Positions 23,194 to 39,440 of a stretch of DNA of 39,851 nucleotides are shown piece after piece. Position 1 is the first letter of the stretch; each line of letters opens with the position of its first letter. The notes below the pieces were generated by a model. That model saw only the letters and a program-made list of their open reading frames with translations, was not told where the DNA came from and ran no database searches. Both the position numbers and the translations under genes were made by a program. This DNA is from a virus. Its lineage: Duplodnaviria; Heunggongvirae; Uroviricota; Caudoviricetes. The stretch spans positions 1 to 39,851 of IMG/VR virus record IMGVR_UViG_2574180019_000010; one strand, written 5' to 3'.

Positions 23194-23736
23194 TCAAGCC
23201 GTTTTTTGAGCGAATGATTCTCGCATGGGAATGTATAGCGCATACTCAGCAACGGCCAACCAATTAGCAATTCGCTTTTCGCATGTGCTAAAACACCACT
23301 CTGGGTGTGCATCATTTAGCAATTCAGCCATTTTGCGTTTGGTCATCCCCCGCCCCTCATACCGTTGCCGAAGGACGCTAATCAATCCTGGATGCTCTGC
23401 CAGCACCTCACTTATGACCCGATCAATACATAACGCCTCTGCATCAGTACAATGCGCCAGCCAGCTCTTTTGCTTACCGTTAATCATATCCCGCAAAAAA
23501 GCCTCAAGTTCAGACTTGTTCAGACCTGCTTTTTTCATCCTGCGGAGCGCCTCGTTAATTTCCGTTTTTGTCAGCTTTTTAGAGGTCAACAACTGGTTGA
23601 ACATATTCCCCGTCTTACCGCCACCAATATACGACCAGCGCCCCCACATACGCAGTTTTCCCTGAATCCAGACACTTTCCAGCGTGGTGAGACGAAGGTG
23701 TTCTCCGCTTTTTCCTGTATTCGTTGGGTAAATCAT
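23194..23736 (-). CDS. Late antiterminator, Q-like
   Basis: 180 aa from ATG 23736 with SD AAGGAAGG, ATGA overlap with the upstream gene; classic Q position. Confidence 0.45.
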   Translation of the reverse strand: MIYPTNTGKSGEHLRLTTLESVWIQGKLRMWGRWSYIGGGKTGNMFNQLLTSKKLTKTEINEALRRMKKAGLNKSELEAFLRDMINGKQKSWLAHCTDAEALCIDRVISEVLAEHPGLISVLRQRYEGRGMTKRKMAELLNDAHPEWCFSTCEKRIANWLAVAEYALYIPMRESFAQKTA

Positions 23737-25080: not shown

Positions 25081-25087
25081 CAGCGCG

Positions 25088-25113
25088 CAACAAAAAACCC
25101 GCCGAAGCGGGTT
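25088..25113 (-). terminator. Rho-independent terminator of the hok transcript
   Basis: Stem AACCCGC / GCGGGTT with loop CGAA, followed by a T-run on the minus strand. Confidence 0.65.
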
Positions 25114-25181
25114 AAGTGCGGGTGCGTTGAGGATGCCTGACACATCAGAGGCGGCGGGGGATTTCTCCCTCGCCAAGTCTC

Positions 25182-25337
25182 TTACTCCTCAGGTTCGTAG
25201 ACTGTGAAGACAGCGACCTCCGTCTGGCCGGTTCGGATTCGTACCTCGCAGAGGTCTTTCCTCGTTACCAGTGCCGTCACTATGACGGTTAAACAGATGA
25301 CGATCAGGGCGATTAACATCGCCTTTTGCTGCTTCAT
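25182..25337 (-). CDS. hokD: Hok-family type I toxin, HokD/RelF-like
   Basis: 51 aa MKQQKAMLIALIVICLTVIVTALVTRKDLCEVRIRTGQTEVAVFTVYEPEE; SD AAGGAG upstream; in-frame upstream extension from ATG 25394 is mok-like. Confidence 0.7.
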   Translation of the reverse strand: MKQQKAMLIALIVICLTVIVTALVTRKDLCEVRIRTGQTEVAVFTVYEPEE

Positions 25338-25350
25338 AGCCTGCTTCTCC

Positions 25351-25460
25351 TTGCCTTTCGGCACGTAAGAGGCTAACCTAGATTTGCCGTTCATAGATTG
25401 AGCCTCAGATTAATGTTAAGCGTCTTGCAGGACGCGTAATGTTAACTGGGGCTTTTCTCT
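25351..25460 (+). ncRNA. Candidate Sok-like antisense RNA with promoter
   Basis: -35 TTGCCT (25351-25356), 17-bp spacer, -10 TAACCT (25374-25379); predicted transcript is antisense to the hok leader; no clean terminator found. Confidence 0.3.
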
Positions 25461-25548
25461 ATCTGCCTTTTGGTGTTCATGCCTGAGACAGATAGCCTCA
25501 AGCACCCGCAGCAATTTTACTTAACTCCCTTTTTCCCGCAAACCGTTT

Positions 25549-25632
25549 TTATCCCCAGCGGCAAATCGAATACACAATCAGCGCCACCGCCATTGCGATT
25601 CCTACCGTGGTGAATGCTTCAGGCCAGGTCAT
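25549..25632 (-). CDS. 27-aa hydrophobic peptide MTWPEAFTTVGIAMAVALIVYSICRWG
   Basis: ATG overlaps the TGA of the upstream 207-aa gene (ATGA); single predicted TM helix; below the ORF track size cutoff. Confidence 0.3.
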   Translation of the reverse strand: MTWPEAFTTVGIAMAVALIVYSICRWG

Positions 25633-32608: not shown

Positions 32609-33016
32609 ACCATTTATTGGATTAATTCAATATTCTTGCTGTAGGGGTATAGCCGAGGCCACCAAAGCCCGGAGGTGGTGAAATAAAACCGGGCACAACA
32701 CCAAGGCGCATTTCCGGTATCCATAAAGAGTCGGTCTTGTCTGTTAAATTTAAATGGTGGGAGTGCGCCTCCGGTTGTAAATAACGACATTGCTATGTGT
32801 AGTCTTTGGCGGCATCAGTTCTACTCCGTGGCTGCCCTGCCGCCCCTTTTTAAAGTGAATTTTGTGATGCGGTGAATGCGGCTAAGCGCACGCGGCACAG
32901 TTAAAAGCATCAGTGTTATGGGTGGATTATCCGGCGTTAATTGTTAACTGGTTAACGTCACCTGGAGGCACCAGGCACCGCATCGACAAAATTCATTTGT
33001 AAAAATGGAGATAATT

Positions 33017-33238
33017 ATGATTGCTCATCACTTCGGAACTGATGAAATACCACGTCAGTGTGTGACTCCTGGCGATTATGTTCTTCATGAAGGTCGGACA
33101 TATATCGCCTCGGCAAACAATATTAAAAAGCGAAAACTTTATATTCGTAACCTGACTACAAAAACATGCATTTCTGACTGCATGATTAAAGTCTTCCTCG
33201 GTCGTGATGGTTTACCTGTAAAGGCGGAGTCATGGTGA
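33017..33238 (+). CDS. kilR: KilR cell-division inhibitor
   Basis: 73 aa [38 protein letters not shown] matches recalled Rac KilR. Confidence 0.7.
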
Positions 33239-37300: not shown

Positions 37301-37507
37301 ATGACAAAAATTATGAGATATGACGATGTTAAACCATGTCCGTTTTGTGGTTGTCCATCTGTTACGGTGAAAGCAATTTCAGGATATTACCGGGCAAAAT
37401 GCAACGGATGCGAATCCCGAACTGGCTATGGTGGAAGTGAAAAAGAAGCACTCGAAAGATGGAATAAACGAACTACTGGAAATAATAATGGAGGTGTTCA
37501 TGTATAA
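37301..37507 (+). CDS. ralR: Restriction alleviation protein RalR/Lar
   Basis: Contains MRYDDVKPCPFCGCPSVTVKAISGYYRAKCNGCESRTGYGG; start may be 37313. Confidence 0.6.
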   Translation: MTKIMRYDDVKPCPFCGCPSVTVKAISGYYRAKCNGCESRTGYGGSEKEALERWNKRTTGNNNGGVHV

Positions 37508-37688
37508 AATAACTGCCACTATTGAAAAAGAAGGTGGCACTCCTACTAACTGGACAAGATATTCAAAATCTAAATTAACGAAATCAGAATGCGAAAAAAT
37601 GCTCTCAGGGAAAAAAGAAGCAGGCGTGTCCAGAGAGCAGAAAGTAAAGCTGATAAATTTTAATTGCGAGAAACTTCTGTCCTCGTGA
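37500..37688 (+). CDS. ydaC: YdaC-like small protein
   Basis: 62 aa MYKITATIEKEGGTPTNW; SD GGAGGT. Confidence 0.5.
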   Translation: MYKITATIEKEGGTPTNWTRYSKSKLTKSECEKMLSGKKEAGVSREQKVKLINFNCEKLLSS

Positions 37689-37794: not shown

Positions 37795-38076
37795 ATGAAT
37801 CTTGTGACACTCAAAACGTGGGGAAAACTCAGATATCCGGATAACCCACCATCAATATCAACGCTGAGACGATGGGCAAGGAATGGAAACATTTATCCTG
37901 CACCTGAACTACACGGGAGAAGTTACAGGGTGGTTCCGGAAGCTTTCTATATCAACCCAAATAAGGTTGATACCGATATAACACACCATCAGCCTAATGG
38001 GCGACAAGGGAGAGACAGTCCGTTACTGGAGAAGTTAAAACATGCAGCGGAAAAAATACGATCCCAATTTGCCTAA
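37795..38076 (+). CDS. xisR: Excisionase
   Basis: Lambda Xis-like N-terminus (TLRRWARNGNIYPAP); overlaps the int start. Confidence 0.55.
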   Translation: MNLVTLKTWGKLRYPDNPPSISTLRRWARNGNIYPAPELHGRSYRVVPEAFYINPNKVDTDITHHQPNGRQGRDSPLLEKLKHAAEKIRSQFA

Positions 38077-39118
38077 AAACTTAACATATCGAAGGAGGGA
38101 CAAAGCATATTACTGGCGCAACCCTCTGACGAAAGAAGAATTTACACTAGGTAAAATTTCAAGAAGAGATGCAGTAGCGCAGGCAATTGAAGCAAATCAT
38201 TATATATACAAAAACTACTCTCCTGCTGCCTTAATTGAAAAACTAAAAGGGTTCGACTCATTTACTATGGCAGACTGGATTGAACGTTACAAAACGATTC
38301 TTATAAGGAGAAAAGTGTCCAGAAATACTTATAAAATTCGGGTAAATCAACTGGAGACAATAAAAGAAAAATTAGGAGGAGTTTTACTGACAGAAATAAC
38401 CACTCGCCATATTGCCGAGTTTCTTGATTTGTGGATTGAAGGAGGGAAAAACACGATGGCAGGATCAATGCGTTCTGTGTTATCTGATATGTTCCGCGAG
38501 GCCATTGTTGAAGGACGTATATCTCAAAATCCAGTAACGCCAACAAGAGCACCGAAAATAGTAGTTACAAGAGAACGGCTGAAACTAAAGACATACAACT
38601 GCATCAGGGAGGCAGCAGATCAACTTCCGACATGGTTCCCATTAGCTATGGACTTAGCCCTTGTAACAGGACAACGTCGCGAAGACATAACAAATATGCG
38701 GTTCAGTGAGATTTATGATGATCGTCTCCACATCAGGCAAATTAAGACAGGAATGATGATTGCTATCCCCCTGTCACTCAGCCTTCCTGTCGCTGGTTTA
38801 CGACTTGGTACAGTAGTTGAACAGTGCCGCATGGTAAGTAGGGGGGATTATCTAATCAGTGCCGGGATTAGAAAAAACAGCCCTGACGGCAGCATTCACC
38901 CGGACGGCCTGACAAAGAAATTTGTCGCAGCCAGAAAATTAACAGGTATCCAGTTCAGTGAAAACCCACCAACTTTTCACGAGATCAGAAGTCTGGCTGG
39001 ACGATTGTACAAAGAAACATGTGGGGAAGAATTTGCTCAACGTCTACTTGGCCACACATCGGAGAAGACAACAAAAATGTATCTTGATGAGAGAGAAAAA
39101 ACGTACTTACTGCTCTGA
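38042..39118 (+). CDS. intR: Lambda-family tyrosine integrase
   Basis: 358 aa; N-terminus like lambda Int arm-binding domain ([27 protein letters not shown]); C-terminal HxxR...Y motifs. Confidence 0.65.
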
Positions 39119-39165: not shown

Positions 39166-39283
39166 AAAAAAGACCGGAATACAGAAATTCGAGTAAATTT
39201 CGAGTAATTTCGGGGAGACGTTTGCAACTAATTGATTTTAAATACAATTAAAAAAAGACCGAATACGATTCCTGTATTCGGTC
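39166..39283. repeat. att-region repeats downstream of int
   Basis: AAAAAAGACCG(G)AATAC at 39166-39182 and 39251-39266; tandem TTCGAGTAA units at 39187-39208; hairpin GACCGAATAC / GTATTCGGTC at 39257-39283. Confidence 0.4.
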
Positions 39284-39440
39284 CAGGGAAATGGCTCTTG
39301 GGAGAGAGCCGTGCGCTAAAAGTTGGCATTAATGCAGGCTTAGTTGCCTTGCTCTTTAAGAATAGATGACGACGCCAGGTTTTCCAGTTTGCGTGCAAAA
39401 TGGTCAATAAAAAGCGTGGTGGTCATCAGCTTAAATGTTA

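Follow-up and report, generated by a model that had tools for sequence, protein, structure and literature searches.

A complete hok/mok/sok cassette in the early region of a prophage

The 39,851-nucleotide stretch of phage DNA analysed here, referred to from this point on as the window, very probably contains a prophage of the Rac/lambdoid type whose delayed-early (nin-like) region carries, as a moron, a complete hok/mok/sok type I toxin-antitoxin cassette from the hokD/hokW lineage. The hok/sok pair is the textbook type I toxin-antitoxin system. In the window, this thoroughly studied family is represented by a complete and probably active member, which rides as a passenger among the early genes of an E. 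coli prophage.

The prophage in the window adjoins sdsR/ryeA and yebY. Its left arm carries kilR, recE, recT, ralR/RalA, xis and int, followed by divergent HTH regulators, ydaT, ydaV, a run of small nin-like genes and the hok/mok/sok cassette. Past the cassette come a rem-type small gene, DUF1367 and DUF1364 genes, a Q-like antiterminator (23194-23736), and the lysis and structural genes. An earlier note on this DNA had placed a hok/sok-type locus in the early region, and this gene order bears the placement out, since the cassette sits between the replication and nin-like genes on one side and the antiterminator on the other, on the same strand as both. Neighbouring proteins of 27, 207 and 83 amino acids returned no match in an NCBIfam search. 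No strong terminator was found close upstream of hok, only a weak 5-bp stem at 25579-25592, and antiterminated early transcription could pass through the cassette in the hok-sense direction and interfere with transcription of Sok.

The whole conserved unit spans 438 bp (25092-25529), with hok on the minus strand, as are all hok-sense features described below. An otherwise unrelated phage contig from IMG/VR (L204/L013) resembles the window only across 25092-25529, where the two are 98.4% identical, and when the flanks of the cassette are clustered by sequence, they form about 31 groups upstream and about 22 downstream. A match so confined, together with flanks so diverse, implies that the 438-bp unit moves as a cassette. 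At 80% identity or more, 4,942 of the 5,426 complete E. coli genomes contain the 501-nt region, in 12,511 places altogether; the median is two places per genome and the maximum ten. One RefSeq chromosome, that of E. coli CDE6306, contains a copy of the 501-nt stretch at 100% identity, in which only 'hokD' is annotated, at the equivalent coordinates. The window and CDE6306 are 99.65% identical only from 23292 onward, the late genes having diverged with insertions and deletions; transfer of the CDE6306 annotation to the part of the window below about 23290 was ruled out, as the two genomes are not colinear there. For comparative purposes, two scans of IMG/VR gave 200 loci comprising 108 unique cassettes, and 64 unique mRNAs were aligned.

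The Rfam family named sok (RF01794) matches the window over the full length of its model, at 25507-25332 (112.4 bits where the gathering score is 59; E-value 5.8e-25). The match falls on the hok-sense strand because this model describes the hok leader and not the antisense RNA: it begins at the known 5' motif of hok mRNA, GGGUGCUUGAGG, and ends at the hok AUG.

The Hok toxin and the mok reading frame

The toxin gene occupies 25182-25337 and encodes a full-length protein of 51 amino acids, MKQQKAMLIALIVICLTVIVTALVTRKDLCEVRIRTGQTEVAVFTVYEPEE. This protein matches the Pfam family HOK_GEF (PF01848) with an E-value of 2.6e-22 and 78.6 bits (cut-off 22), and PHROG 251, 'MokW-like host killing', with an E-value of 2.8e-32. 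The NCBIfam Hok models score it only below their curated cut-offs (45 bits vs 73). In protein alignments, 50 of the 51 residues are shared with HokD of E. coli K-12, the one substitution being A46V, and 47 of 51 with HokW of phage 933W; RefSeq likewise annotates the identical copy as hokD. The near-identity to HokD/RelF given in the earlier note is thus real, as is the full-length Hok-family frame preceded by a Shine-Dalgarno sequence. The latter, AAGGAG (25347-25352), is invariant in the alignment of 64 homologues.

Upstream of hok and in frame with it, the mok frame extends from the ATG at 25394 to the end of hok (25182-25394), giving 70 codons, the first 19 of which precede the hok start. 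Its putative Shine-Dalgarno sequence, GAGG (25403-25406), lies 8 nt upstream of the ATG. The mok-like extension proposed in the earlier note is therefore a 70-codon open frame with a ribosome-binding site of its own, and by sequence this candidate leader frame reaches the hok start, as expected for mok. Its ATG is invariant (64/64 homologues). Fifty-six of the 64 homologues have the in-frame 70-codon form, also seen in the annotated mokW and mokC; seven have a 19-codon mok, in which the UGA overlaps the hok AUG (AUGA), a termination-reinitiation layout; and a single one has mok in another frame. Every variant in this set reaches the hok start.

Promoter, folding elements and terminator of the hok mRNA

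The full-length hok mRNA is predicted to be about 415 nt long (25092-25507), its 5' end being placed by the start of the Rfam model at 25507 and by the predicted fold. A putative -10 element, TAAAAT, lies at 25514-25519, and most homologues have TAGAAT at this place; a possible -35 element, TTGCGG (25536-25541), falls outside the conserved cassette. From the homologous promoter region of hokW, mRNA is reported to have been detected in lysogens (PMC8621323). A simple scan for the sigma-70 consensus flagged neither the hok promoter nor that of Sok, so that the assignment of both follows from homology to hokW/sokW and sokC and from conservation, rather than from consensus strength.

In R1-type hok mRNA, a metastable hairpin forms at the 5' end of the nascent RNA, a stem between the tac and fbi elements closes the full-length form while ucb hides the mok Shine-Dalgarno sequence, and trimming at the 3' end leads to refolding into tac/ucb and mok-SD/dcb stems; the refolded mRNA is what Sok, a stem-loop with a free 5' tail, recognizes (PMC9841398, PMC1635323). 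Elements and predicted pairings of each of these kinds can be read from the window and followed through its homologues. The minimum free energy (MFE) fold of the full-length mRNA (25507-25090) has a predicted energy of -168 kcal/mol (z -7.3). In this fold, nucleotides 1-12, the translational activator element tac (25496-25507), form 12 base pairs with the fold-back inhibition element fbi, CCUCAACGCACCC (25120-25132). The folding of the transcript ends that the earlier note had suggested as a check thus returns the expected closing stem. The tac/fbi stem is 100% paired across the 64 homologues, with substitutions only to G-U, and the fbi sequence itself is nearly invariant. In the same fold, the stretch AGCCCCAG (25453-25446) of the ucb element, the anti-Shine-Dalgarno of mok (AAGCCCCAG, 25446-25454), pairs with the mok Shine-Dalgarno region.

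When the RNA is ended just before fbi, the predicted fold changes. Nucleotides 1-8 now pair with 25454-25448, which corresponds to the tac/ucb helix, 7 bp long and invariant among the 64 homologues. The mok Shine-Dalgarno region GAGGCU (25406-25401) pairs with the downstream complementary box dcb, AGCCUC (25369-25374), both in this 3'-truncated fold and in an isolated 45-nt hairpin, and the GAGGC and GCCTC halves of this helix are near-invariant in the alignment. For the nascent RNA, a metastable hairpin of 11 bp is predicted within the first 32 nt, in which tac pairs with 25479-25489 (-16.9 kcal/mol). All of the regulatory pairings of the R1 type (tac/fbi, ucb/mok-SD, tac/ucb, mok-SD/dcb and the metastable 5' hairpin) are therefore present in the predicted structures. 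Covariation lends thin support to these helices, since the 64 homologues, being over 90% identical, show few double compensatory changes.

The mRNA is predicted to end at an intrinsic terminator (25092-25113), with a stem at 25113-25096 of 7 bp, five of them G-C, a CUUCGG loop and a following run of six T. This G+C-rich hairpin is the strong terminator that the earlier note had placed at 25088-25113; it is kept in K-12 hokD, and 933W has other sequence in its place. Between the start of fbi and the predicted 3' end lie about 40 nt, a geometry that fits the 39 nt slowly trimmed from the 3' end of R1 hok mRNA (PMC1635323).

The Sok antisense RNA and its promoter

On the plus strand, within the mok/hok junction, lies a candidate Sok promoter (25351-25379) consisting of a -35 hexamer TTGCCT (25351-25356), a 17-nt spacer and a -10 hexamer TAACCT (25374-25379). 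The two hexamers match the simple consensus at four of six and three of six positions, respectively. From the -35 through the -10 element, the window is identical base for base to 933W, and the -10 hexamer (AGGTTA on the hok-sense strand) is kept in most sequences of the 64-homologue alignment and reads AGATTA in a minority. The sokW promoter has been probed by mutation. Takada et al. (2021) describe a 'pro-less' sokW made with primer YO-421, which changes TAGGTTA to CCGGCTC on the hok-sense strand; this construct is reported to lose protection against HokW, which is partly restored by sokW supplied in trans (PMC8621323). The YO-421 change, as given in that description, destroys exactly the TAACCT hexamer that the earlier note had named.

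The Sok RNA is predicted to be 71 nt long (25386-25456, plus strand), with both ends placed by homology to the annotated sokW and sokC. Annotation places the 5' end of sokW, like that of K-12 sokC, 8 nt inside the respective mok gene, and the same geometry puts the first nucleotide of Sok in the window at 25386; the 3' end at 25456 was set by the length of sokW. The antisense promoter and the start near 25386, both foreseen in the earlier note, are in this way upheld by a promoter of identical sequence validated by mutation and by the geometry of two annotated relatives. In the predicted fold of Sok (-30 kcal/mol, z -5.6), 14 nt at the 5' end stay single-stranded as a tail, and a long hairpin follows before a U-rich end. 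By sequence, Sok would thus be a gene with its own promoter whose product is complementary to the mok initiation region and combines a free tail with a stem-loop. The counterpart sokW RNA is reported to be visible by Northern blot in Sp5 lysogens (PMC8621323).

Comparison with known hok loci

The best-annotated phage match is 933W (AF125520), which carries hokW, mokW and a 71-nt 'SokW antisense RNA'; the window is 92.7% identical to this annotated locus over 25560-25110. Common to the window and to hokW (933W/Sp5) are the hok promoter region, tac, ucb, the long Sok hairpin, the Sok promoter, the in-frame 70-codon mok, hok and fbi, and the same small 27-aa open reading frame precedes both cassettes. 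The two differ in four C-terminal residues of Hok and in the allele covering mok codons 2-5 and the Sok 5' tail, which is AACGGCAAATC in the window and CTGAACACATG in 933W. Directly past fbi, 933W diverges and is without the window's terminator. The 933W cassette also lies at the far end of the phage genome rather than in the nin region and on the strand opposite to the adjoining large gene L0134, whereas the window cassette shares its strand with the surrounding early genes. Because of this difference in position and orientation, the role of hokW may not transfer to the window, and the analogy is limited to that extent.

The hokD (relF) locus of the Qin cryptic prophage in K-12 resembles the window in another way. 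Its 3' UTR, fbi and terminator correspond nearly base for base to those of the window, and each hok gene is closely followed, on its own strand, by a rem-type small gene and a Q-like antiterminator, which in Qin is ydfT. The homology of K-12 hokD to the window begins only at the hok Shine-Dalgarno sequence, however, and relBE stands in place of the promoter, tac, ucb, the mok start and sok, all of which belong to the full leader found in the window. Assignment of the window to the hokD/relF type of locus, a relB-relE-hokD operon, was rejected, since relBE is absent from the window and the leader is there in full. As the window holds the complete form, the RefSeq name 'HokD' fits the protein but not the architecture of the locus. 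The relBE form does occur in two of the IMG/VR loci (L061 and L065).

Like the window, the hok/mok/sok (parB) locus of plasmid R1 has the same set of regulatory elements at almost the same spacing. Counting from nucleotide 1 at 25507, the mok AUG is at nt 114 in the window and nt 116 in R1, and the hok AUG at nt 171 and nt 174, respectively; 19 mok codons lie upstream of hok in each. The start codons are 58 nt apart in R1, which puts mok in another frame, and 57 nt apart in the window, which puts it in frame. In both, Sok combines a free 5' tail with a stem-loop; it measures 71 nt in the window, 14 nt of them tail, and 64 nt in R1, where the tail is 11 nt. The R1 Hok protein is a distant relative, HokW and R1 Hok being reported as 44% identical (PMC8621323), and the R1 system resides on a plasmid rather than in a prophage. 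The K-12 hokC/mokC/sokC (gef) locus has a homologous leader, its mok is in frame and contributes 19 codons ahead of hok, and its Sok begins 8 nt inside mok. Its Sok hairpin is short, without the 18-nt insert, its Sok-tail allele is that of hokW and not that of the window, and the locus is adjoined by IS186.

Hypervariability of the Sok tail and its target

Across about 100 phage copies, the cassette has a single hypervariable part, a 22-nt patch (25381-25402) comprising the spacer between the mok Shine-Dalgarno sequence and ATG together with mok codons 2-5, which is at once the predicted 5' tail of Sok and the target of that tail. In a diversity scan of the 64 mRNAs, mean pairwise diversity in this patch is 0.28-0.34, compared with 0.00-0.14 in the remaining transcribed cassette, a contrast to be read with the selection of the first homologue set for similarity in the hok coding part in mind. 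About nine major alleles of the patch occur in the 108 unique cassettes, with the window allele in 19, and the alleles are shuffled relative to the C-terminal variants of Hok. The 14-nt tail is predicted to pair with its cognate target at -19 to -22 kcal/mol and with other targets at -3 to -14 kcal/mol; for the window tail, non-cognate targets give -4.8 to -9.1 kcal/mol. Only three pairs of cassettes from the same genome were available, of which one shared an allele and two differed, about 11% sharing being expected by chance, and these gave no signal that co-resident cassettes avoid or favour a common allele. A statement on hypervariability of the Sok tail was not found in the literature searched, which left out the older papers of the Gerdes laboratory.

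The variability of the patch fits a diversification of antisense specificity. Tentatively, the 22-nt patch may be kept diverse, and the cassettes of co-resident prophages may represent specificity types insulated from one another. If so, mRNA with the window allele would escape silencing by SokW- and SokC-type RNAs, and the Sok tail of the window would be blind to their targets.

Proposed mechanism

Taking the R1 and hokW systems as models, we infer from sequence and folding how the cassette would be transcribed and processed, how its toxicity would arise and what role it would serve. A weak constitutive promoter would give an mRNA of about 415 nt, whose 5' tac element would first be held in the metastable hairpin and next be locked to fbi at the 3' end, while ucb masks the mok ribosome-binding site; the lock and the masking together would render the full-length RNA inert. 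Once slow trimming had shortened the 3' end by about 40 nt, fbi would be gone, tac would switch to ucb and the mok Shine-Dalgarno sequence would become exposed in its stem with dcb. The refolded RNA would then be either translated or captured by Sok. Translation of mok would enter and open the hok start. Sok, an unstable RNA of 71 nt whose promoter lies inside the mok/hok junction, would use its free 5' tail of 14 nt to pair with the mok start region, in a duplex that would then be destroyed. Once synthesis of Sok stops, Hok, a 51-aa inner-membrane peptide, would be made and would damage the membrane. By analogy and by the intactness of its elements, this mechanism is well supported, which does not hold for the biological role.

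Biological role

By analogy with hokW-sokW, the role of the cassette is most likely membrane damage coupled to induction of the prophage, which would advance lysis along with phage release. According to the Sp5 study (PMC8621323), HokW is toxic and sokW protects against it, and Sp5 lysogens contain hokW mRNA as well as sokW RNA. Upon treatment with mitomycin C, and dependent on RecA, sokW RNA is lost and HokW appears; in a hokW-sokW deletion, growth arrest sets in about 40 min later and the amount of released phage is halved. We accordingly regard an aid to lysis upon induction as likelier than addiction or exclusion.

That the cassette serves mainly for prophage addiction or anti-phage defence, roles already raised in the earlier note, is conceivable but less likely; it would then kill cells from which the prophage is lost, or abort infections in which another phage shuts off host transcription. 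The mechanism is triggered whenever synthesis of Sok ends and is thus compatible with both of these roles, and the R1 hok/sok system is described as stabilizing its plasmid and weakly excluding T4 (bioRxiv 10.1101/2025.08.07.668861). The reported effects of the hokW-sokW deletion, however, concern the timing of lysis and the yield of phage; hok is found in the same preprint to be enriched in prophages and not near defence systems (bioRxiv 10.1101/2025.08.07.668861); and no feature of the window relates to either role.

It is improbable that the cassette is a decayed relic, complete in appearance but silent or non-toxic and without a role, like the hok loci of E. coli K-12. Such decay does have precedents, for instance in K-12 hokD, from which the whole leader is gone, and in chromosomal hokA, hokB and hokC, which are said to have failed to mediate post-segregational killing in earlier tests (via bioRxiv 10.1101/2025.08.07.668861); both promoters of the window are, moreover, weak by consensus. 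Set against this, every element in the window is intact and visibly constrained, the Hok frame being full length and the mok ATG, tac, fbi, both Shine-Dalgarno sequences and the Sok -10 being conserved over about 100 phage copies, and the 92.7%-identical hokW-sokW locus is reported to be active. Slightly less probable still is a reading in which the antisense promoter is irrelevant and Hok, serving as an accessory protein of lysis or of the membrane, comes mainly from early-operon read-through, for although hok and the flanking early genes share one strand with no strong terminator directly upstream, the Sok promoter and hairpin are as strongly conserved as the coding sequence, the identical sokW promoter is reportedly required against HokW toxicity, and hokW mRNA is reportedly there already before induction.

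Implications

Since the family is a textbook one, with a 92.7%-identical phage copy already characterized by experiment and a 100% copy annotated as hokD in RefSeq, the cassette adds little to what is known of hok/sok systems as such. Existing genome annotation stops at the toxin coding sequence; neither the mok frame nor the Sok RNA (25386-25456) nor any of the mRNA elements is annotated. The window copy also offers a picture of the truncated hokD of K-12 as it would have been before relBE took the place of its leader. The localized variability of the Sok tail, in turn, provides a simple and testable handle on cross-talk between co-resident hok/sok cassettes.

Variation within the hok/sok cassette

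Comparison of about 100 phage copies of hok/sok revealed a single hypervariable stretch in the cassette, at window positions 25381-25402, which comprises the 5' tail of the predicted antisense RNA Sok together with its target, namely the spacer between the mok Shine-Dalgarno sequence and ATG plus mok codons 2-5. Among these cassettes the patch occurs as roughly nine discrete alleles, which are shuffled against the Hok variants. The tail/target duplexes are predicted to be stronger for cognate than for non-cognate pairs by some 10 kcal/mol or more.

Variation also affects the architecture of mok and the length of Sok. Seven cassette variants from IMG/VR (L006, L032, L042, L050, L053, L067, and L082) carry a 19-codon mok in a frame differing from that of hok, with the mok UGA overlapping the hok AUG (AUGA). 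This overlap is a putative termination-reinitiation arrangement, as opposed to the in-frame 70-codon form. Two further IMG/VR loci, L047 and L060, have a short Sok hairpin from which an internal insert containing GCGTCCTGCAAGACGC is absent, and hokC of K-12 (L085) likewise has a short hairpin, with an 18-nt gap at the insert position. The presence or absence of this insert therefore defines two Sok length classes within near-identical Hok lineages.

The match to RF01794, the Rfam model named 'sok', spans 25332-25507, has the same orientation as hok and stops at the AUG of that gene. RF01794 models the hok mRNA leader, and the strand of the model should therefore not be taken for that of the antitoxin RNA.

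Upstream of hok, an unannotated hydrophobic ORF of 27 amino acids (25549-25632, minus strand; translation MTWPEAFTTVGIAMAVALIVYSICRWG) begins with an ATG that overlaps the stop codon of the preceding 207-aa gene (ATGA). It has no match in Pfam, NCBIfam or PHROG, and is kept upstream of hok in 17 of the 81 loci, including that of Stx2 phage 933W, with mostly conservative substitutions.

The top full-length phage match to the cassette is PP818812.1 (H31; 95.6% identity, 100% coverage). This record is named Actinobacillus phage vB_Apl-pPE4, although a hok cassette of the E. coli type would not be expected in a phage of that host; the host may have been mis-assigned, or the record may reflect contamination.

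Prophage context

Full-length genes for the sRNAs SraC/RyeA and SdsR/RyeB (39246-39390) lie about 130 bp past the integrase gene (38042-39118) and ahead of yebY, so the prophage integrated beside this sRNA pair and left it undisrupted. A second type I toxin-antitoxin pair of the same prophage, ralR/RalA, occupies 37313-37688, with ralR at 37313-37507 on the plus strand and the RalA antitoxin RNA at 37506-37684 on the minus strand (Rfam, 219 bits). The early-left arm encodes the DicF sRNA (32794-32845; Rfam, 60.9 bits) and kilR (33017-33238), both on the plus strand, and the prophage therefore mixes Qin-like and Rac-like modules.
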